Assembly: GCA_017501465.1 (NCBI GenBank)
Contig: JAFVWY010000009.1
Coordinates: 115,092-179,091, forward strand
DNA from: Bacilli bacterium
GTDB lineage: Bacteria > Bacillota_I > Bacilli_A > ML615J-28 > CAG-313
Length of the DNA: 64,000 nucleotides
Direction of reading: 5' to 3'
The translations under genes and the position numbers were made by a program. The notes beneath the pieces were generated by a model. The model was not told where the DNA came from. It searched no databases and was given only the letters and a program-made list of their open reading frames with translations. Shown here piece by piece: positions 23,890-59,062 of this stretch (the first letter of the stretch is position 1; each line of letters begins with the position of its first letter).

Positions 23890-24522
23890 ATGTATATGAA
23901 AAAAAGAAAAGTAACAACAGCGTGGGAAGTTCAAGTAGCAATCCTTTCTGCACTTGCCATTATTTTATACAATTTTCCTAAGTTTCAACTTCCGTTTTTT
24001 CCTGGTATGTTAAGTGTGCAATTTTCTATGTTACCTACTATTATTGGTGGTTTTGCTTTAGGTCCAGTTGGCGGAATCTATATTGTATTAATTAAGTTTA
24101 TTTTTAAATTACTAACAACAAGATCAGCTGGGGTTGGAGAATTTGTTGATTTAATTATAGGAGTTTGTGTAGTACTTGTTACTTCACTAATTTATAAATA
24201 TATTAAAAGTAAAAAAGGAGCCATTATTGCCTTAATTATGGGATCTATTACTTGGGTAGTAGTTGCGGTTATTTTAAACTGGCTTTGGGCAATACCATTT
24301 TATTGTAATACTTTTGGTATGGATAAAGTAATTGGTATGATAATGGTAATACCTGGCGTTAATGAAAGCAATTATATGAGTAAATATTTATTATTTGGAT
24401 GTTTACCATTTAATCTTATGTTAGCAAGTGTAGTAAGTATAGTCACATATATTATATATAAAAGAGTTTCTTGGTTATTTGAGAAAATGACTAATAAAAT
24501 AGAAAAGAAAAATAGAGTTTAA
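23890..24522 (+). CDS. ribU: riboflavin transporter RibU (ECF S-component)
   Basis: Sits downstream of the FMN riboswitch. About six TM helices, 210 aa. LPTIIGGFALGPVGG segment typical of RibU/YpaA. Confidence 0.75.
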   Translation: MYMKKRKVTTAWEVQVAILSALAIILYNFPKFQLPFFPGMLSVQFSMLPTIIGGFALGPVGGIYIVLIKFIFKLLTTRSAGVGEFVDLIIGVCVVLVTSLIYKYIKSKKGAIIALIMGSITWVVVAVILNWLWAIPFYCNTFGMDKVIGMIMVIPGVNESNYMSKYLLFGCLPFNLMLASVVSIVTYIIYKRVSWLFEKMTNKIEKKNRV

Positions 24523-47820: not shown

Positions 47821-48690
47821 ATGTCAAATGTAGTTATACTTACAGATTCTACTTGTGATTTATCACAAGAATTATTAAAAGAATATGATATACATGTACT
47901 ACCACTTTATGTAACAATTAATGGTAAATCTTATAAAGACTTTGTTGAACTAACTGCAAAGGATATGTATGAGTTAGCTGAAAAAGAAAATGCTCATCCT
48001 AAAACATCAGCTGCTTCAGTTCAAGACTATTACGATTTCTTTTCACAATTTTTAAAGGAAGGTAAAGAAATTGTTTACTGTGGAATTGGTAAAAACTTAT
48101 CAAGTAGTTACCAAAATGCTTTTTTAGTAATCAATATGTTAGAAGAAAATCATCCAGAATATACTGGTAAAGTACATTTAGTTGATAGTATGAGTTTATC
48201 TACTGGTATTGCTTTAACTTTGTTAAAAATGTGTAAAGCAAGAGATGAAGGTAAAACAGCTATAGAAATTGCCAAAATTGGTGAGGAAGTTTCTCAAAAA
48301 GTTGTTGCTCAATTTTGCGTAGAAGGATTAGATTATATTCACAAAGGCGGAAGATGCTCTAATTCAGCAAAATTTTTTGGTACACTTTTATCTATTAAAC
48401 CAATGTTAAAGGTTGAAGGCGGAAAACTTAATGTTTGGAAAAAATCAATTGGTTCTTTCAAAAAAGCTTTAAATATTATGATTGATGAATTTAAACAATC
48501 ACTGCCAAATTTAGATAAAGACTTCATTTTTGTCACTCATTCTGAGGGTGATGAATATGCTAAATACATTTGGGATAAAATAAGTGAAGAAAGCAAAGAG
48601 TTTGCTAACGCTTATGAGACTAAAGCTGGTTGTGTTATTTCTGGTCACTGTGGAAAAAATACAATTGGTATTTTGTATATTGAAAAATAA
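47821..48690 (+). CDS. degV: DegV-family fatty-acid-binding protein
   Basis: VVILTDSTCDLSQELLKEYDIHVLPLYV N-terminus typical of DegV, 289 aa. Confidence 0.85.
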   Translation: MSNVVILTDSTCDLSQELLKEYDIHVLPLYVTINGKSYKDFVELTAKDMYELAEKENAHPKTSAASVQDYYDFFSQFLKEGKEIVYCGIGKNLSSSYQNAFLVINMLEENHPEYTGKVHLVDSMSLSTGIALTLLKMCKARDEGKTAIEIAKIGEEVSQKVVAQFCVEGLDYIHKGGRCSNSAKFFGTLLSIKPMLKVEGGKLNVWKKSIGSFKKALNIMIDEFKQSLPNLDKDFIFVTHSEGDEYAKYIWDKISEESKEFANAYETKAGCVISGHCGKNTIGILYIEK

Positions 48691-48717
48691 TAAAGATATT
48701 TTATAATATCTTTAAAT

Positions 48718-49078
48718 GGGCTAGTATTGGTTTCGACGGGATGTTAGAAGGTTGATAAGCATACCGTGGTCATGCACGTTAAAACATCTAGGTTTAAAAT
48801 AACCGGAAATCAAAATTTAGCTTTCTGCTAGGCTTAAATAGCAGATCCTAATAATTAGGGTAACTCCTTTGTGTCTTGCCTATGTGATACAAAAGGATTC
48901 AGAGAATAGGCTATGATGATCATATTAGCTTCGGTATAGGATTCGAGATTTAGAGCTGGTAGTAATTATGTTTTGTTTATTTTCATAATTACTATGAGAC
49001 CAAATTAATAAACTAAGTATGTAGAAAATTGATTAGATAATGTTTCGGACGCGGTTTCGACTACCGCCTAGTCCACCA
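48718..49078 (+). ncRNA. ssrA: transfer-messenger RNA (tmRNA, ssrA)
   Basis: 5' GGGCUAG pairs with 3' CUAGUCC, then discriminator A plus encoded CCA. GGUUUCGACGGG D-analog. T-arm GCGGUUUCGACUACCGC with UUCGACU loop. 361 nt. Internal tag ORF ends with UAG. Another frame ends with UAA UAA. Confidence 0.85.
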
Positions 49079-49176
49079 TTAGAATACACGCCACTTTGTT
49101 GAAAAATGAAGTGGTTTTTTTATTTTATAGAAATTTGGTTTTTGTATTGACAATGTAGTGACATTTTGGTATAATG
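49047..49176 (+). repeat. att-like module copy A: tmRNA 3' end, terminator hairpin, TTGACA-17-TATAAT promoter
   Basis: Core tagtccaccattagaatacacgccactttgttgaaaaatgaagtg (49070..49114) recurs at 52146..52190 with 3 mismatches. A more degenerate copy lies at 50996..51044. All three are followed by a promoter. Confidence 0.75.
49089..49122 (+). terminator. intrinsic terminator downstream of tmRNA
   Basis: ccactt..aagtgg hairpin followed by ttttttt. Confidence 0.6.
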
Positions 49177-49198
49177 AAAGTGTTATGGAGGTATTTTT

Positions 49199-49831
49199 AT
49201 GAGTTATATACAAATTAGAATTGATGATGAATTAAAAGAAGAAGCTGTAAAATTGTTTAATGAATTAGGTTTAGATTTATCTACAGCTATTCGTCTTTTT
49301 CTAAAGAAAAGTATTGATGATAAAAAAATGCCCTTTAAATTAAAAGGCAAGGGACGTGACGATTCTAAAGATGTTAAATACCGATTAAGAGCAGATGTAA
49401 TGGTACCACCTAATACTAACCCGTTTGAAGTAATGGATGAATTTATCCGAGTTTGTAATGAGAATGAATGGTACTGTTTAGGTGGTGGTGTACAATATCC
49501 TAATAAAGTCTTGACACTTTCAAAACCGGATGATGACATATATTATCACGGTTCACCATTTAAAATTGAAACTTTAAAAGAAGGGTTTGATTTTACGCCA
49601 TTTAAAGAACTTGCAATTTCATTTGGAAGTAAGCCATCACATATATCTATTAATGAGGGGAAAGTTAGCCATGATGGGATTAAATATCCTGTATATTTAT
49701 ATCAAATTGATGAAGACATAAAACTTGAAAAAGATTTTATTAATCATCCAAATTCAGCATTTGATAAAGGAATGGAATTCCGTTCTAAACGTGATTTAAA
49801 ATTAAAGTTGATAGATGTTATTAATGAGTAG
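49199..49831 (+). CDS. RelB/DinJ-type ribbon-helix-helix antitoxin-like domain fused to ~160-aa domain of unknown function
   Basis: N-terminal MSYIQIRIDDELKEEAVKLFNELGLDLSTAIRLFLKKSI matches the DinJ/RelB antitoxin family. The C-terminal domain has no recognised motif. Promoter 49147..49175 upstream. Confidence 0.55.
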   Translation: MSYIQIRIDDELKEEAVKLFNELGLDLSTAIRLFLKKSIDDKKMPFKLKGKGRDDSKDVKYRLRADVMVPPNTNPFEVMDEFIRVCNENEWYCLGGGVQYPNKVLTLSKPDDDIYYHGSPFKIETLKEGFDFTPFKELAISFGSKPSHISINEGKVSHDGIKYPVYLYQIDEDIKLEKDFINHPNSAFDKGMEFRSKRDLKLKLIDVINE

Positions 49832-49840
49832 GTGAATATT

Positions 49841-50839
49841 ATGGAAAAACAATATGGTCAAATCATTATATATAAGACACCTGATGGCAACACAAAATTA
49901 GAAGTTAAATTTTATGAAGATACTGTTTGGTTATCACAAGAACAACTTGTAGAACTTTACGGGTCTAGTAAATCCAATATTAGTGAACATATTAAACACA
50001 TATTTGAAGAAGGTGAACTAGATGAAAATTCAACTGTTCGGAATTTCCGAACAGTTGCTAGTAACGGAAGAACATATAATATAAAGTATTATAATCTAAA
50101 AATGATTATTGCTATTGGATATAGAGTTAGAAGTAATATCGGAACAAATTTTAGAAAATGGGCTACAACAACTTTAGAAGAATATATAGTTAAAGGATTT
50201 TCTATAAACGATGATTTACTAAAACGTGCAGGTGGCGGAAGATATTTTAAAGAACTACTTGCAAGAATAAGAGATATTAGATCTAGCGAAAGAGTGTTTT
50301 GGCGACAAGTTCTGGATATATTTGCAACATCAATAGATTATGATCCTAAACTTGAATTATCACAAGAGTTTTTTAAAACTGTACAAAACAAAATGCACTG
50401 GGCAACTCATGGTCATACTGCTGCTGAGATAATAGTAGAAAGAGCAAATGCTAAAAGAGATTTTATGGGTTTGACTTCATTTGATGGGGATTACCCAACA
50501 AAAGAAGATGCTGAAATTGCTAAAAACTATTTATCAAAAGATGAACTTGATACACTAAATAGAATTGTTTCATTATATTTAGATTTTGATGAACTTATGG
50601 CAAAAGAAGAAAAGCCAATGACGATGAAGGATTGGATAAAACAGCTTGATTATTTTCTAAAAATGAGTAGAAAAGATATATTGACTGGAAGTGGAACTAT
50701 ATCACATATTAAAGCATTAGAACATGCTAGAAAAGAATATAATGATTTTAGTAAGAGAATTTTAACAAATCCAACTGAAAATGAAAAATTATATTTTGAT
50801 AAATTACAACAGTTAATGTTAATAGATAAAAAAGAATAG
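49841..50839 (+). CDS. RhuM-family (virulence protein RhuM-like) protein
   Basis: IIIYKTPDGNTKLEVKFYEDTVWLSQEQLVELYG and KYYNLKMIIAIGYRVRSNIGTNFRKWATTTLEEYIVKGF match the RhuM family N-terminal and central core. AGGTGA RBS before ATG 49841. Starts 10 nt after the upstream stop. Confidence 0.7.
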   Translation: MEKQYGQIIIYKTPDGNTKLEVKFYEDTVWLSQEQLVELYGSSKSNISEHIKHIFEEGELDENSTVRNFRTVASNGRTYNIKYYNLKMIIAIGYRVRSNIGTNFRKWATTTLEEYIVKGFSINDDLLKRAGGGRYFKELLARIRDIRSSERVFWRQVLDIFATSIDYDPKLELSQEFFKTVQNKMHWATHGHTAAEIIVERANAKRDFMGLTSFDGDYPTKEDAEIAKNYLSKDELDTLNRIVSLYLDFDELMAKEEKPMTMKDWIKQLDYFLKMSRKDILTGSGTISHIKALEHARKEYNDFSKRILTNPTENEKLYFDKLQQLMLIDKKE

Positions 50840-50917
50840 TTTTCAGGTTTTTAAATATTTATGCTAATCTCATCAGAGTTTTTGCATTATGGTATAGCTT
50901 TCCGTTTCAATAATTTA

Positions 50918-50962
50918 AATTCCCGGTTTTTACTTAGATGCCGGGAATTATTTGTAATTTTA
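50918..50962 (+). terminator. intrinsic terminator after the RhuM gene
   Basis: aattcccgg / ccgggaatt 9-bp inverted repeat with 14-nt loop, followed by atttgtaatttt. Confidence 0.55.
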
Positions 50963-50992
50963 ATAAAAATAACACGCATACAGTCAGAAACT

Positions 50993-51099
50993 CCCCTGGT
51001 CCACTAAAAATAATTTCGTCTGGTTTGTTGAAATAACAATCCAGTTGTTAATTTAATTTTGATCTTGATTTTGCAAACAAAATTCTTATATGCTATAAT
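50993..51099 (+). repeat. att-like module copy C (degenerate): tmRNA-3'-end-like core, ctgg..ccag hairpin, TTGCAA-17-TGcTATAAT promoter
   Basis: cctggtccactaaaaataatttcgtctggtttgttgaaataacaatccag aligns to copy A (cctagtccaccattagaatacacgccactttgttgaaaaatgaagtgg). Promoter at 51071..51099. Confidence 0.55.
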
Positions 51100-51132
51100 T
51101 TCAATGAAATGATATTCATAGGAGGTAAAATT

Positions 51133-51999
51133 ATGAAAATAATACATATGATTGATGATTACAAAATATTATGTAAAGATATAGAATCTATGGGTAAATA
51201 TGAAGCATATAAAGCATATATAAAAAAATATCCTTATTTCTTTGAAGGTGTATTAAAATATTTATATTGCCAACCAATAGAGAATTTAAAAGAAATGATT
51301 GAGAATGTTAATTTTCATTTATTATTAAAAACAGCAGAAGAAAATTATGAAACTGGTAAAGTGGATTATATTATTGAGTTTATGAATAAATTTATCAAAA
51401 AAATGAATGTTGATTTTGATTTTTCATTTCTTATAGGTATAGAAATGGGGAATATTGGAGGATGTGCAACTCCGTGTGATACAGGGGACCCTCATTTGTA
51501 TATAGGAATAGATAAACCGTTAGATAAACAAAAGATTGGTATGCTTATTTCGCATGAACTATATCATATGTTAAGGGCATATATGACTCAAGGGAGTACA
51601 GCGGATACGGTGTTTTCTAGAATGGTAGAAGAAGGATTAGCATCATATTCATCATTATGGGCTCATGATATGGAATGGAACACGGTTAATATTGCAAAGA
51701 CATTGGGCGTATCTGAAAAACAAGCAAATAATTTATTAAATAATACAAATGCCCTATTAGAAAGAATTGTTAATGATGGTGAAAAACCGATCTCAGTAGA
51801 GACAATGACTGAATATTTTATTGCTGATATGAATGATGTGGAGTTTCCAGTTATAGGATACTATGTTGGATTATATCTTGCACATTTATCTATAGAGCAA
51901 GGGATAGATTTTGAAAGTTTTATTTCAATGTCACAAAATGATATAATTGACATGTGGTTAAAACAAATACTGACACTTAAATGTATAAAAAATAATTAA
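51133..51999 (+). CDS. putative zinc metallopeptidase (HExxH; DUF2268-like)
   Basis: SHELYHML HExxH motif in a helical context. GGAGG RBS before ATG 51133. Own promoter embedded in repeat copy C. Confidence 0.5.
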   Translation: MKIIHMIDDYKILCKDIESMGKYEAYKAYIKKYPYFFEGVLKYLYCQPIENLKEMIENVNFHLLLKTAEENYETGKVDYIIEFMNKFIKKMNVDFDFSFLIGIEMGNIGGCATPCDTGDPHLYIGIDKPLDKQKIGMLISHELYHMLRAYMTQGSTADTVFSRMVEEGLASYSSLWAHDMEWNTVNIAKTLGVSEKQANNLLNNTNALLERIVNDGEKPISVETMTEYFIADMNDVEFPVIGYYVGLYLAHLSIEQGIDFESFISMSQNDIIDMWLKQILTLKCIKNN

Positions 52000-52118
52000 A
52001 TATTAAACGTTTAAGATTTCGTACAAAAACGAGAATTTTTTGCACTATTGATATTTCAAGGGTATAAATTAATGAAAAACGTTAAAAACCATATAAAAGG
52101 ATAAGTTATTATCAAATT

Positions 52119-52233
52119 GGACGCGGGTGGAAACAAGTAGCCACCTAGTCCACCATTAGAACACACGGCACTTTGTTGAAAAATAAAGTGTCTTTTTATA
52201 TTTGTAGTCAATATGAATTTTATATGTTATAAT
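52119..52233 (+). repeat. att-like module copy B: displaced tmRNA 3'-end fragment, hairpin, promoter
   Basis: ggacgcgg...tagtccaccattagaacacacggcactttgttgaaaaataaagtg, then T-run and TAGTCA-17-TGtTATAAT promoter. It has no 5' tRNA-like half and its T-arm is degenerate. Confidence 0.75.
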
Positions 52234-52273
52234 AAAACAAAAGAATTTATTTTTGATTATAAGAGGTAATTAA

Positions 52274-52972
52274 ATGAACCCACAAGTTTTTGGAAAAGAA
52301 CATTTGATTTATATTTTTGTTAGTATAATAGTGGCTTTAGCTGTACTTATCTTAACAAAAAGATTTGCTAAAACAGAAAAGATAAAAAATATTGTAATGA
52401 AAGTTGCAGGTGCAATTTTATTTATAATTATATTTATTAATAGATTAGTGCTTGTTTTTGAATATAATCAAGTAGATTGGATTCAATTTGTACCTGATTC
52501 TATATGTAGCACTTCAAGCTTTGTTTTATCTTTAGCGATATTATTTGGGAAAAAAGATAATAAGGTTCTTCATTTTATTTGGCTTGTTTCTCTTGCGGGA
52601 GGAGTAATAACTACATTTTATCCTAATTTTATTGGACAAAACTCTAAGTTTATGTATCCACCTACAATTTTTGGAATGATGCATCATACTTGGGGTGCAA
52701 TAGTTGTAATACTATTATTTTTGTTGGGATACTTAAAACTTACATATAAAAAATGGTATTGTACTTTGATTGGATTTACATCATATTTATCATATGGCGC
52801 TTTTTTAATGTGTGTATTAAAAATAGGTAATCCTTTATATATGACAGGGCCAGCACTTGATGGCACAATATTTACGATTTGGGTACTAATTCCAATTTAT
52901 TTTGTTGTTTATGGGCTAATATTGGGTGTATTAGAATTAATAAGAAACAAAGATAAACTGTTAAAAAAATAA
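52274..52972 (+). CDS. YwaF-family integral membrane protein
   Basis: Seven TM helices, 232 aa. Overall match to the intramembrane YwaF (TIGR02206-type) family. Confidence 0.5.
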   Translation: MNPQVFGKEHLIYIFVSIIVALAVLILTKRFAKTEKIKNIVMKVAGAILFIIIFINRLVLVFEYNQVDWIQFVPDSICSTSSFVLSLAILFGKKDNKVLHFIWLVSLAGGVITTFYPNFIGQNSKFMYPPTIFGMMHHTWGAIVVILLFLLGYLKLTYKKWYCTLIGFTSYLSYGAFLMCVLKIGNPLYMTGPALDGTIFTIWVLIPIYFVVYGLILGVLELIRNKDKLLKK

Positions 52973-58451: not shown

Positions 58452-58528
58452 AAAAAGATGGTTAAATCCATCTTTTCTTTTTCAAAAATATATATTTTAT
58501 GGTATAATAAAAATAGAAGGTGATAATT

Positions 58529-59062
58529 ATGAAATATTTAGTTTTTTCTGATATCCATGGTTCTTTTTATTATGCTAAAATTATGGAAAGTATAATAAAA
58601 AAAGAAAAACCTAATAAAATAATTTTACTTGGTGATTTATATTATCATGGCCCTAGAAACCCTCTTCCTGTAGAATATAATCCTAAAGAAGTTGCTAATT
58701 TACTAAATCAATATCAAGATAAAATTATAGCAATTAAAGGAAATTGTGATGCGGAAGTTGATCAAATGATATCTTTATTTAAAATAAAAAATCATTTAAA
58801 ACTTACTATTAATAACAAAAAAGTTATGTTCACTCATGGACATAAATATAATATAGATAATGTTCCAAGTGATGTTGATGTATTAGTTTATGGACATTTT
58901 CACACTTGTTTTATTAAAAAAACAGATGATAAAATATTTATTAATGCGGGGAGTATTACATATCCTAAAGATAATACACCTCATTCATATTTGATAATTG
59001 ATAAAAATATTTTAACTATTAAAGATATTGAAGGTCTAGCTATTGATCAAATTATTTTATAG
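58529..59062 (+). CDS. YfcE/MJ0936-family metallophosphoesterase
   Basis: MKYLVFSDIHGS, LGDL, GNCD, FTHGH, GHFH calcineurin-like motifs. AGAAGGTGA RBS before ATG 58529. Confidence 0.75.
   Translation: MKYLVFSDIHGSFYYAKIMESIIKKEKPNKIILLGDLYYHGPRNPLPVEYNPKEVANLLNQYQDKIIAIKGNCDAEVDQMISLFKIKNHLKLTINNKKVMFTHGHKYNIDNVPSDVDVLVYGHFHTCFIKKTDDKIFINAGSITYPKDNTPHSYLIIDKNILTIKDIEGLAIDQIIL

Follow-up and report, generated by a model that had tools for sequence, protein, structure and literature searches.

A ribbon-helix-helix protein with a predicted ADP-ribosyltransferase-like domain and a RhuM-family protein form a co-mobile gene pair on a tmRNA islet

The tmRNA islet and its operon

The 64,000-nucleotide stretch of Bacilli DNA that was analysed here (the window) contains a tmRNA gene, ssrA, on the forward strand at positions 48718..49078, which was detected by ARAGORN and matches Rfam RF00023 over its full length with 144.6 bits. 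The gene is the integration target of a 3.1 kb islet that is bounded by direct repeats of 67 nt, 85% identical to each other, as found by a repeat search and a terminator scan. The left, attL-like repeat (49064..49130, +) consists of the tmRNA 3' end and a terminator hairpin at 49090-49115, and the right, attR-like repeat (52141..52207, +) consists of a displaced copy of the tmRNA 3' end, likewise with a terminator (52167-52192). Three genes lie in between, all on the forward strand. Gene 1 (49199-49831) encodes a protein of 210 residues that begins with MSYIQIRIDDELKEEAVKLFNELGLDLSTAIRLF, gene 2 (49841-50839 including the stop codon) encodes a RhuM-family protein of 332 residues, and the third gene (51109..51999) encodes a putative Zn-dependent peptidase of 296 residues (DUF5700/DUF2268, HExxH motif; Pfam 2.3e-07 and 1.6e-05). 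The peptidase-like gene has no PADLOC match and is missing from the other copies of the cassette, so it falls outside the conserved part. The cassette that is common to other genomes, composed of gene 1 and rhuM, is 1.94 kb long. Its right end (50918..51007, +) includes a hairpin, TTCCCGG...CCGGGAA (50920-50947), that can be read from the sequence, and homology to the related loci L011-L021 and L119 stops at 51004-51007.

The initial annotation had placed the pair on a mobile islet at the tmRNA gene, and this is borne out by the duplicated tmRNA 3' end at both boundaries and by the variable content of the site in related genomes. The same repeat of about 70 nt flanks the cassette in L011, L017, L018 and L119, and related genomes contain tandem arrays of different cassettes with this repeat between them. 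At the L119 site, for example, DegV and the tmRNA are followed by a Fic cassette, a rhuM gene that lacks gene 1, and another Fic gene. The base composition of the islet is unremarkable (28.4% GC versus 27.9% for the window). No integrase or recombinase is found among the three islet genes, and none is present among the Pfam annotations of the called genes within about 6 kb in those related loci for which annotations were listed, e.g. L011 and L119. CIME-like elements are integrase-less, att-flanked islets that can be mobilised in cis and that accrete at tRNA and tmRNA genes. The present islet is likewise bounded by direct repeats of the tmRNA 3' end and has no visible integrase, and the locus illustrates how, in uncultured gut Bacilli, cassettes without an integrase accrete at the tmRNA gene.

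Both open reading frames were found where the initial annotation had put them, and they form a tightly coupled operon whose members travel together. The most likely start of rhuM is the ATG at 49841, because its homologues are 332 residues long, and this start leaves a spacing of 9 nt between the two genes. The ribosome-binding site of rhuM, read as AGGTGA (49830-49835, +), overlaps the TAG stop of gene 1, an overlap by which RhuM appears to be translationally coupled to gene 1. The promoter scan identified a sigma-70-type promoter, TTGACA-17-TATAAT with an extended -10 TG (49147..49175, +), that matches the consensus in 12 out of 12 positions. It is the best site of the region and the only strong one, it is situated upstream of gene 1, and it is the promoter of the gene 1-rhuM operon.

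This promoter is overlapped, at its -35 hexamer and its spacer, by a tandem, operator-like repeat, TGTATTGACA-A-TGTAGTGACA (49143..49163, +). The repeat forms a conserved block in the alignment of 9 gene 1 loci whose proteins are 50-98% identical. The 19-nt tandem pattern occurs once in each of 22 of the gene 1-family loci analysed, among them L114 with its 51% relative, whereas the 80 loci that contain rhuM only (L027-L106) all lack it. Note that the tandem element is retained down to 51% protein identity, where the synonymous sites are saturated. The single 10-mer of the repeat is not enriched in the window. We consider the tandem element a putative binding site of the ribbon-helix-helix (RHH) domain described below.

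Domain composition of the two proteins

The N-terminal residues 1-50 of gene 1 (49199..49348, +) constitute a RelB/DinJ RHH domain of the kind responsible for DNA binding and dimerisation. The initial annotation had recognised this domain by eye and profile searches agree, as both Pfam RelB PF04221 (E 1.3e-11, 44.7 bits, cut-off 22.4, residues 1-49) and NCBIfam TIGR02384 RelB_DinJ (E 3.5e-18, 65.6 bits, cut-off 45.65, residues 3-63) are matched above their cut-offs. With plasmid RelB/DinJ antitoxins the domain shares 50-54% identity, and a Foldseek search of gene 1 against the PDB returned DinJ alone, for the N-terminus, and no ADP-ribosyltransferase (ART). The similarity is confined to one part of the profiles: gene 1 covers only positions 1-49 of 82 in the Pfam model and 5-65 of 85 in TIGR02384, which means that the C-terminal, toxin-binding segment of RelB/DinJ is absent. 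The score against the equivalog model NF008412 (40.8 bits) is below the cut-off of 96. Residues 64-210 are a different, globular module.

The region that follows the RHH domain, residues 51-112 (49349..49534, +), starts with a variable linker modelled with low confidence (51-72), which has the highest dN/dS of the protein, and continues with a helix and strand subdomain (pLDDT 58-82 for the whole region). According to the alignment this subdomain is confined to the RHH-fused family and contains two invariant cysteines, Cys86 and Cys93. The rest of the protein, residues 113-210 (49535..49828, +), is a globular domain that is modelled with high confidence and has an ART-like predicted fold; we refer to it as mini-ART. 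Its closest structural match is Arr, the rifampin ADP-ribosyltransferase, and other ARTs are also close, so the predicted fold is nearest to that of Arr and its ART relatives. The initial annotation saw no recognisable motif in this part, which is correct in as much as profile searches of Pfam, NCBIfam, PADLOC, PHROGs and the PDB gave nothing meaningful, but the final 95 or so residues do belong to a conserved and widespread domain family with a predicted ART-like fold. The family comprises 266 clusters at 50% identity and has neither a Pfam model nor a solved structure. No Pfam match was obtained with 11 members at E-values up to 10 or with 101 members at E-values up to 1, and there is no significant profile match to described ART families such as Arr-ms PF12120, PARP, RES or PTS_2-RNA. 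Gene 1 is a previously undescribed protein that combines an RHH domain with one of predicted ART shape.

The conserved residues of mini-ART are H117-G-S119, T133, H158, Y168, D179, E193 and R198. An hhalign comparison with Arr (E 0.05, low probability) aligns His117 with the first catalytic residue of Arr, and by the alignment either D179 or E193, both of which are conserved, could be the catalytic acid. About 40% of the RHH-fused proteins have Tyr or Phe in place of His117, the copy in the window retains H117-G-S119, and the His of the H-x-S/T motif is invariant in 34 mini-ART fusion proteins. The dN/dS of the whole gene 1 coding sequence against its homologues is 0.04-0.15, and that of the remainder of the mini-ART domain is about 0.06-0.14. 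As His117 is so often Tyr or Phe and the rest of the domain is constrained, a binding or sensor role would fit better than that of an indispensable enzyme. At the same time the invariant S119, T133, H158, Y168, D179, E193 and R198 look like an active site more than like a passive sensor. Fusion partners of mini-ART in the wider family are GNAT acetyltransferases (9 out of 34), the AadA C-terminal domain, methyltransferases, a nitroreductase, NUDIX, HAD and histidine phosphatase domains, and the nearest stand-alone mini-ART gene adjoins AbiTii and Abi_alpha genes. Full-length homologues of gene 1 are absent from 50,697 phage and 72,556 plasmid records. Two further candidates in the window were discarded. 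The weak mini-ART match at 58517-59059 is a YfcE-type metallophosphoesterase with a chance 'LYYHG', and the other open reading frame of 210 residues (23890-24522) encodes a membrane protein and is no paralogue of gene 1.

The assignment of gene 2 to the RhuM family, already made in the initial annotation, is confirmed (PF13310, E 2e-106, 355.3 bits, cut-off 33.7). The protein also matches the PADLOC model PDLC04843 of the candidate defence system PDC-S05 (E 4.7e-146, 484.2 bits, residues 1-326 of 332), it is 55-72% identical to family members from other phyla, and it is a full-length, typical member. Residues 1-125 (49841..50215, +) form a winged-helix-like N-terminal domain common to PDC-S23, where it is joined to Doc, and to other PDC-S05 variants. 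Residues 126-332 with the stop codon (50216..50839, +) correspond to a highly conserved, all-helical C-terminal domain, PF13310, that has many invariant residues and is represented by a low-confidence model. Genes of the RhuM family are typically embedded beside DNA methylases, specificity subunits and Cas9, and in 6 of 56 loci rhuM is immediately 3' of Cas9. A single PDC-S05 gene from another source reduced the plating of T7 and T5 about 1000-fold and that of T4 about 10-fold (bioRxiv 10.1101/2024.09.26.614923). The defence role proposed in the initial annotation is thus backed, for RhuM, by the PDC-S05 match and by a published phage challenge of another member, from which we infer that the copy in the window is probably anti-phage as well.

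Linkage of gene 1 and rhuM across genomes

The two genes remain adjacent in copies that range from 98% to as little as 75/78% identity, and the cassette occurs in at least 6 upstream and at least 8 downstream contexts. Gene 1 and rhuM are therefore inherited and moved as a unit, yet the association is not obligate on either side. In the loci L119-121 the same DegV-tmRNA hotspot is occupied by an intact RhuM, 86% identical to ours, that has a promoter of its own and no gene 1, and L122-125 also have rhuM alone. A survey of 80 further RhuM loci from metagenomes found a gene 1-like partner in none, the RelB family is not among the 25 most frequent families of 56 upstream neighbours of rhuM, and of the 10 small, tightly coupled open reading frames that were scanned upstream of rhuM only 2 encode HTH proteins. 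A conserved linkage of RhuM to RHH or antitoxin genes, the lack of which the initial annotation had named as speaking against its view, is thus absent at the level of the family and present as a lineage-restricted one. In the literature library that was searched, no paper mentions RhuM along with RelB, DinJ or ribbon-helix-helix.

Conversely, there are relatives of gene 1 without rhuM (L001, L005, L025 and L112), and these are under strong purifying selection. Homology between loci ends with the stop codon of gene 1 (49830) or 16 nt short of it (49815), and the gene found 3' of the relatives is rhuM, a fusion of the RhuM N-domain with Doc (PDC-S23), a gene for a 228-residue unknown protein, or none. 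A LOG/SLOG gene situated 3' of an 82% homologue of gene 1 was considered as an alternative effector and rejected; it is followed by tRNA-synt_1b (a class Ib aminoacyl-tRNA synthetase) and resembles a core gene, so this homologue was counted as having no partner. The PADLOC candidates that adjoin gene 1 relatives are PDC-S05, PDC-S23, PDC-S04/SoFic and PDC-S01. The pairing with proteins containing the RhuM N-domain is seen at three levels, i.e. full RhuM downstream, the RhuM-N + Doc fusion downstream (of a 51% identical relative), and a PDC-S05 variant upstream, and it covers about 10 of 14 distinct contexts.

A putative regulator and its candidate defence effector

The explanation we lean towards, at a little under an even chance, is that the locus is a mobile two-gene defence cassette in which gene 1 is the regulator module and RhuM the effector; a regulator with a defence effector is what the locus looks more like than a toxin-antitoxin pair. 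The RelB/DinJ-type RHH dimer of gene 1 would bind the tandem TGTAnTGACA repeat at the -35 hexamer and spacer, and through this binding it would control the very strong promoter from which both gene 1 itself and rhuM, coupled to it in translation, are transcribed. The mini-ART domain, which takes the place of the RelB/DinJ toxin-binding tail, would act as an input module. Its ligand may be NAD+, a compound of the ADP-ribose type, another small molecule or a protein partner, and ligand binding would modulate the repression; some copies may also have kept an ADP-ribosylating activity. RhuM, i.e. PDC-S05, with its winged-helix N-domain and conserved helical C-domain, would be the anti-phage effector. 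RhuM is among the most abundant candidate defence genes. A natural variant with a dedicated regulator or partner offers an entry to its mechanism, and the input or target of mini-ART could reveal how RhuM is controlled or triggered.

The initial annotation regarded the order of the genes as the standard type II toxin-antitoxin layout. In an addiction module of this kind RhuM would be a growth-arresting toxin and gene 1 its antitoxin, with an autoregulatory RHH domain and a mini-ART that binds RhuM (type II-like) or ADP-ribosylates it (type VII-like), and RhuM would be set free when phage attack or the loss of the cassette leads to the degradation or inactivation of the gene 1 protein. The resemblance of the RHH domain to plasmid antitoxins fits this scheme, as do the antitoxin-first, tightly coupled order, the persistence of the pair over its range of identities and contexts, the RhuM-N + Doc fusion preceded by the 51% relative (Doc is an established toxin domain), and the proposal, made from its position in R-M loci, that RhuM is a toxin domain (PMC3710099). 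We nevertheless hold the scheme to be rather unlikely, and the claim of a standard layout is not supported by the comparison. Gene 1 lacks the toxin-binding part, which in E. coli RelB is essential for RelE neutralisation to go by the title of PMC12301738, and RhuM is not of the RelE/YafQ type. The 86% identical RhuM at the same hotspot does without gene 1, neither the 80 RhuM loci nor the frequent upstream families supply a comparable partner, and HTH proteins are rare among the coupled upstream frames. The RhuM-less relatives of gene 1 persist under strong selection, and one PDC-S05 gene could be cloned into E. coli and worked there without a partner, which is evidence that this member is not strongly toxic (bioRxiv 10.1101/2024.09.26.614923).

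The operon might instead join two independent functions, gene 1 being an autoregulated Arr-like enzyme that ADP-ribosylates a small molecule (e.g. an antibiotic or xenobiotic) and RhuM an unrelated defence gene on the same promoter. That Arr is the top structural match, that mini-ART is fused, in the wider family, to typical small-molecule-modifying enzymes, that each gene is found alone and that recombination breaks exactly at their junction all speak for it, but the association with the RhuM N-domain is far above chance adjacency, the neighbourhoods are rich in defence candidates and not in resistance genes, and the putative catalytic His is often lost; we find this quite unlikely. Unlikely, too, is that the two proteins make up a genuine immune system with two components, of a type not seen before. 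An NAD+-using Arr-like domain, tethered to the operator of its own operon, would then sense infection, or use RhuM, DNA or a phage factor as a substrate for ADP-ribosylation, and would in this way switch RhuM on. If it were true, the pairing with effectors that share the RhuM N-domain and differ in what follows (RhuM-C, Doc or a third C-domain) would reflect a specific interaction with that domain, and the ART superfamily would gain a new branch, the mini-ART family, that serves both defence and the modification of small molecules. Gene 1 could also be an effector itself, either an RHH-tethered ART that modifies DNA or a DNA-bound protein (cf. DarT, Scabin) or a self-regulating anti-defence protein (cf. 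the ART AcrIF11 fused to its own Aca-type repressor). The copy in the window keeps H117-G-S119, Y168, D179 and E193, the DNA-binding domain would put the enzyme on DNA, and rhuM follows Cas9 directly in some loci. We judge this improbable in view of the absence of full-length homologues from phage and plasmid records, the chromosomal location of the family, in islets of gut Bacilli with defence candidates as neighbours, the replacement of the His in many copies, and the lack of a macrodomain or ADP-ribosylhydrolase partner.

It is useful to compare the regulator and effector reading with known systems. Like other RhuM (PF13310, PDC-S05) proteins, gene 2 is a full-length, defence-associated member of a family found beside R-M genes and Cas9, but PDC-S05 is catalogued as a single-gene candidate, whereas here it is second in an operon behind an RHH-mini-ART gene, and it resides on a tmRNA islet instead of within an R-M system. 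As a counterpoint to the regulator reading, RhuM works elsewhere without such a regulator, so that no added value of gene 1 is apparent. With RelBE and DinJ-YafQ, gene 1 shares the RHH family, the first position and an operator-like repeat in its own promoter, which suggests relBE-like autoregulation; the differences are that a globular module of about 150 residues replaces the toxin-wrapping tail and that the partner is not obligate in either direction. No RelE-like open reading frame is present in 48600-52400, and the downstream neighbour of gene 1 is RhuM, without a RelE/YafQ fold. As compared to the minimal ARTs, i.e. Arr, AcrIF11, the Tpt1 C-domain and CC0527/DUF952, mini-ART is shorter than Arr and its His is not conserved in the RHH-fused branch. 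If mini-ART is active, it would add a new branch of small ARTs, with a bearing on the modification of antibiotics or on NAD+-based signalling. BrxR and CapW are wHTH-WYL repressors that lie upstream of varied defence systems. Their layout, a DNA-binding and a sensor-type domain with an own promoter and operator and with exchangeable defence cargo downstream, is like that of our cassette, where the regulation is putative, but the folds, wHTH + WYL in one case and RHH + mini-ART in the other, are unrelated.

Layout of the cassette and its tmRNA islet

Gene 1 (49199-49831, plus strand, 210 aa) and the RhuM gene that follows it lie where the initial annotation placed them. The ATG at 49841 (plus strand) is the most likely RhuM start because database homologues measure 332 aa; it is 9 nt from the TAG stop of gene 1, and its ribosome-binding site (AGGTGA, 49830-49835, plus strand) overlaps that stop codon. 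A promoter and terminator scan found neither a terminator nor a good promoter between the two genes, and the sole strong promoter is upstream of gene 1 (49147-49175, plus strand; a perfect TTGACA-17-TATAAT with an extended -10 TG), so the two genes constitute a single operon. Within the RhuM coding sequence there is a perfect palindrome with a 12-bp stem, CAACTGTTCGGAAATTCCGAACAGTTG (50031-50057), which scored as terminator-like on the minus strand and codes for the conserved peptide TVRNFRTV.

Directly upstream of the operon is a full-length tmRNA gene (48718-49078; ARAGORN; Rfam RF00023, 144.6 bits). Its 3' end and terminator hairpin form a 67-nt direct repeat (49064-49130 and 52141-52207, copies 85% identical) enclosing a 3.1-kb insert with three genes, gene 1, RhuM and a 296-aa putative Zn peptidase of the DUF5700/DUF2268 type (HELYH, 51109-51999). 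The last has no PADLOC match and is missing from all other cassette copies compared. None of the three genes is an integrase, and the GC content of the islet equals that of its flanks. The relatives are gut MAGs (animal and human) that carry the labels Bacilli, 'Staphylococcaceae' or Coprobacillus sp. CAG:698, and their homology to the window is limited to the 1.94-kb gene 1-RhuM cassette (49066-51007), which in these genomes is often flanked by ~70-nt copies of the tmRNA end and has at least six different upstream and at least eight different downstream contexts. The proposal of a mobile islet is thus borne out by the direct repeats and the varied contexts.

Copies of this kind (~70 nt, tmRNA 3' end and terminator) were also located in the homologous loci L011 (735-931, 5844-5938), L017 (838-945, 2800-2881), L018 (3673-3745) and L119 (1127-1194, 4155-4209), where they partition successive small cassettes of Fic genes, unknown genes and gene 1-RhuM. 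Since tmRNA ends recur between cassettes and no integrase is among the genes called within ~6 kb in L011 and L119, the pattern suggests that integrase-less cassettes accrete in tandem at ssrA of these gut Bacilli. The tag peptide given by ARAGORN (GNQNLAFC*) is unusually short and Cys-terminated; tmRNA tag peptides usually end in Ala-Ala, and the resume codon may have been mispredicted.

Domains of gene 1 and of RhuM

The RelB/DinJ ribbon-helix-helix (RHH) domain first noted at the N-terminus of gene 1 is real: residues 1-63 match Pfam RelB (E 1.3e-11) and, over its cut-off, TIGR02384 (E 3.5e-18), and are 50-54% identical to annotated plasmid RelB/DinJ antitoxins. These profiles are matched over the DNA-binding part only; the toxin-binding C-terminus is absent. 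A variable linker (residues 51-72) leads to a short helix and strand unit in which Cys86 and Cys93 are invariant in the alignment. All parts of gene 1 are under strong purifying selection (dN/dS 0.04-0.15), in RhuM-linked copies and in copies without RhuM alike.

Residues 113-210 form a ~95-residue domain, mini-ART, with the aligned motif YYHGSP...TPxKELAIxF..KP...H.G...YLYxIDE...D..HPNSAF..G.E.R.KR.LKLKLI. The profile search collected 266 clusters (50% identity representatives) at E <=1e-3, most members being stand-alone proteins of 100-150 aa. The 34 longer proteins are fusions, to GNAT acetyltransferases in nine, and otherwise to histidine phosphatase, methyltransferases, the AadA C-terminal domain, HAD, nitroreductase, NUDIX and alpha/beta hydrolases. 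No match was found among Pfam, NCBIfam, PADLOC and PDB sequence models, and a Foldseek search of the PDB with the gene 1 model returned no ADP-ribosyltransferase (ART). Profile-profile comparison with Arr reference sequences taken from the PDB placed YHGS on YHGT and GYLYxVDE on GYIYIVEP (E 0.05, low probability). We consider it likely that mini-ART has an Arr-like minimal ART fold, although no sequence model places it in a described ART family. The His aligned with the first catalytic residue of Arr is invariant in the fusion proteins (34/34); in the RHH-fused family it is replaced by Tyr or Phe in ~40% of members.

In gene 1 this residue is His117 (codon 49547-49549), and the His of YYHGS changes to Tyr or Phe several times among the homologues P0010-P0037. 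A RhuM-type gene follows in 4/4 distinct contexts of His copies and 1/6 of Tyr copies (raw counts that ignore kinship). P0176, a protein of 1515 aa, has 15 partial repeats matching mini-ART profile positions 11-66, an odd arrangement for a domain of an enzyme.

Gene 2 encodes a full-length and typical RhuM protein (PF13310, E 2e-106; PADLOC candidate PDC-S05, E 4.7e-146), a member of a very large and very conserved family with 55-72% identity to Bacteroidota, Proteobacteria and Thermodesulfobacteriota proteins. The confident model covers only the N-terminal ~120 residues, which resemble winged-helix DNA-binding domains; the C-domain is conserved and helical. Anantharaman et al. (PMC3710099) suggested that RhuM is a toxin domain, found within R-M loci and in many cases fused to Doc, and one PDC-S05 gene, cloned alone, is reported to have reduced plating in E. 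coli B ~1000-fold for T7/T5 and ~10-fold for T4 (bioRxiv 10.1101/2024.09.26.614923).

Separability of gene 1 and RhuM

RhuM lies downstream of all gene 1 copies that are at least 93% identical, of an 85% copy (L110) and of a 75% copy (L107-109), where RhuM itself is 78% identical. In a 51% relative the gene downstream encodes a RhuM-N plus Doc fusion (PADLOC PDC-S23), and the 78-80% relatives in L023 and L024 have immediately upstream a PDC-S05 variant with nothing but the N-domain in common with RhuM, L024 carrying an additional Fic gene (PDC-S04/SoFic-like) downstream. No RhuM-type gene adjoins the relatives at 89%, 82%, 78% and 50%; the 82% copy adjoins a PDC-S01 gene, and the closest stand-alone mini-ART gene adjoins AbiTii and Abi_alpha genes. 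The linkage in the initial annotation is therefore partly kept when viewed from gene 1, but it is absent from the RhuM side: in 80 metagenome loci whose RhuM is 54-66% identical, no gene 1-like RHH or mini-ART lies within 4 kb. The genes upstream in these loci encode DNA methylases, specificity subunits, Type III and Eco57I enzymes, Cas9 (in six loci) and, in a few cases, HTH proteins. L119-121 provide the decisive case: an intact RhuM, 86% identical to the one here, occupies the same DegV-tmRNA hotspot and has a promoter of its own but lacks gene 1, and its locus becomes homologous to the window at 49815, 16 nt before the gene 1 stop. As each gene occurs without the other, they are separable modules which, once joined, have been retained and mobilised as a pair in one lineage.

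Upstream of RhuM in L119 (2727-2890) there is a promoter-like site and then a pair of almost identical hairpins, GGTGCGAGGGTAGCACC and CAGTGTGAGGGTAACACTG, both with AAAAAGAAAT(C/T)CC after them; next comes a terminator-like hairpin, CCTTGCGTTAGGCAAGG, with a T run. This region could be a leader, riboregulator or small RNA in place of gene 1. Regarding the Cas9 neighbours, a Cas9-sized gene with RuvC_III and HNH_4 immediately precedes RhuM in 6/56 metagenome loci, with a gap of 14 nt in L070, L079, L089, L090 and L106 and 62 nt in L078, RhuM being at about 4001 in most; RhuM thus appears to be embedded in type II CRISPR-Cas loci besides R-M loci.

Possible roles of the cassette

A tandem repeat, TGTATTGACA-A-TGTAGTGACA (49143-49163, plus strand), spans the -35 hexamer and spacer of the gene 1 promoter and is kept across aligned gene 1 loci from 98% to 50% identity. 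The 19-nt tandem pattern occurs once each in 22 gene 1-family loci among those compared and in 0/80 RhuM-only loci. Since synonymous sites are saturated at this divergence (dN/dS analysis), the element is under selection, and we infer a putative RHH operator.

The best-supported reading, which we put forward tentatively, is that gene 1 encodes an autoregulated RHH transcription factor in which the Arr-like mini-ART, in place of an antitoxin tail, would serve as a sensor or enzymatic input, while the gene 1 unit would supply promoter and control to the co-transcribed RhuM, the presumed defence effector. The layout resembles that of regulators upstream of varied defence systems, with a conserved regulator-promoter unit, stop-codon breakpoints and exchangeable defence cargo. 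The toxin-antitoxin reading of the initial annotation finds only partial support. A module in which mini-ART would neutralise RhuM is favoured by the RelB ancestry of gene 1, its close coupling to RhuM and a relative's Doc-fusion partner, but both genes occur without a partner and gene 1 lacks the toxin-binding tail, and we regard it as doubtful. It is unlikely that the cassette unites two independent functions, gene 1 being an Arr-like small-molecule modifier, and quite improbable that gene 1 is a DNA-tethered ART effector or an AcrIF11-like self-regulated anti-defence protein. RhuM/PDC-S05, RelB-type RHH domains and tmRNA islets are already known; the mini-ART family, its RHH fusion and the recurrent pairing of that fusion with RhuM N-domain proteins appear to be undescribed in the literature searched.
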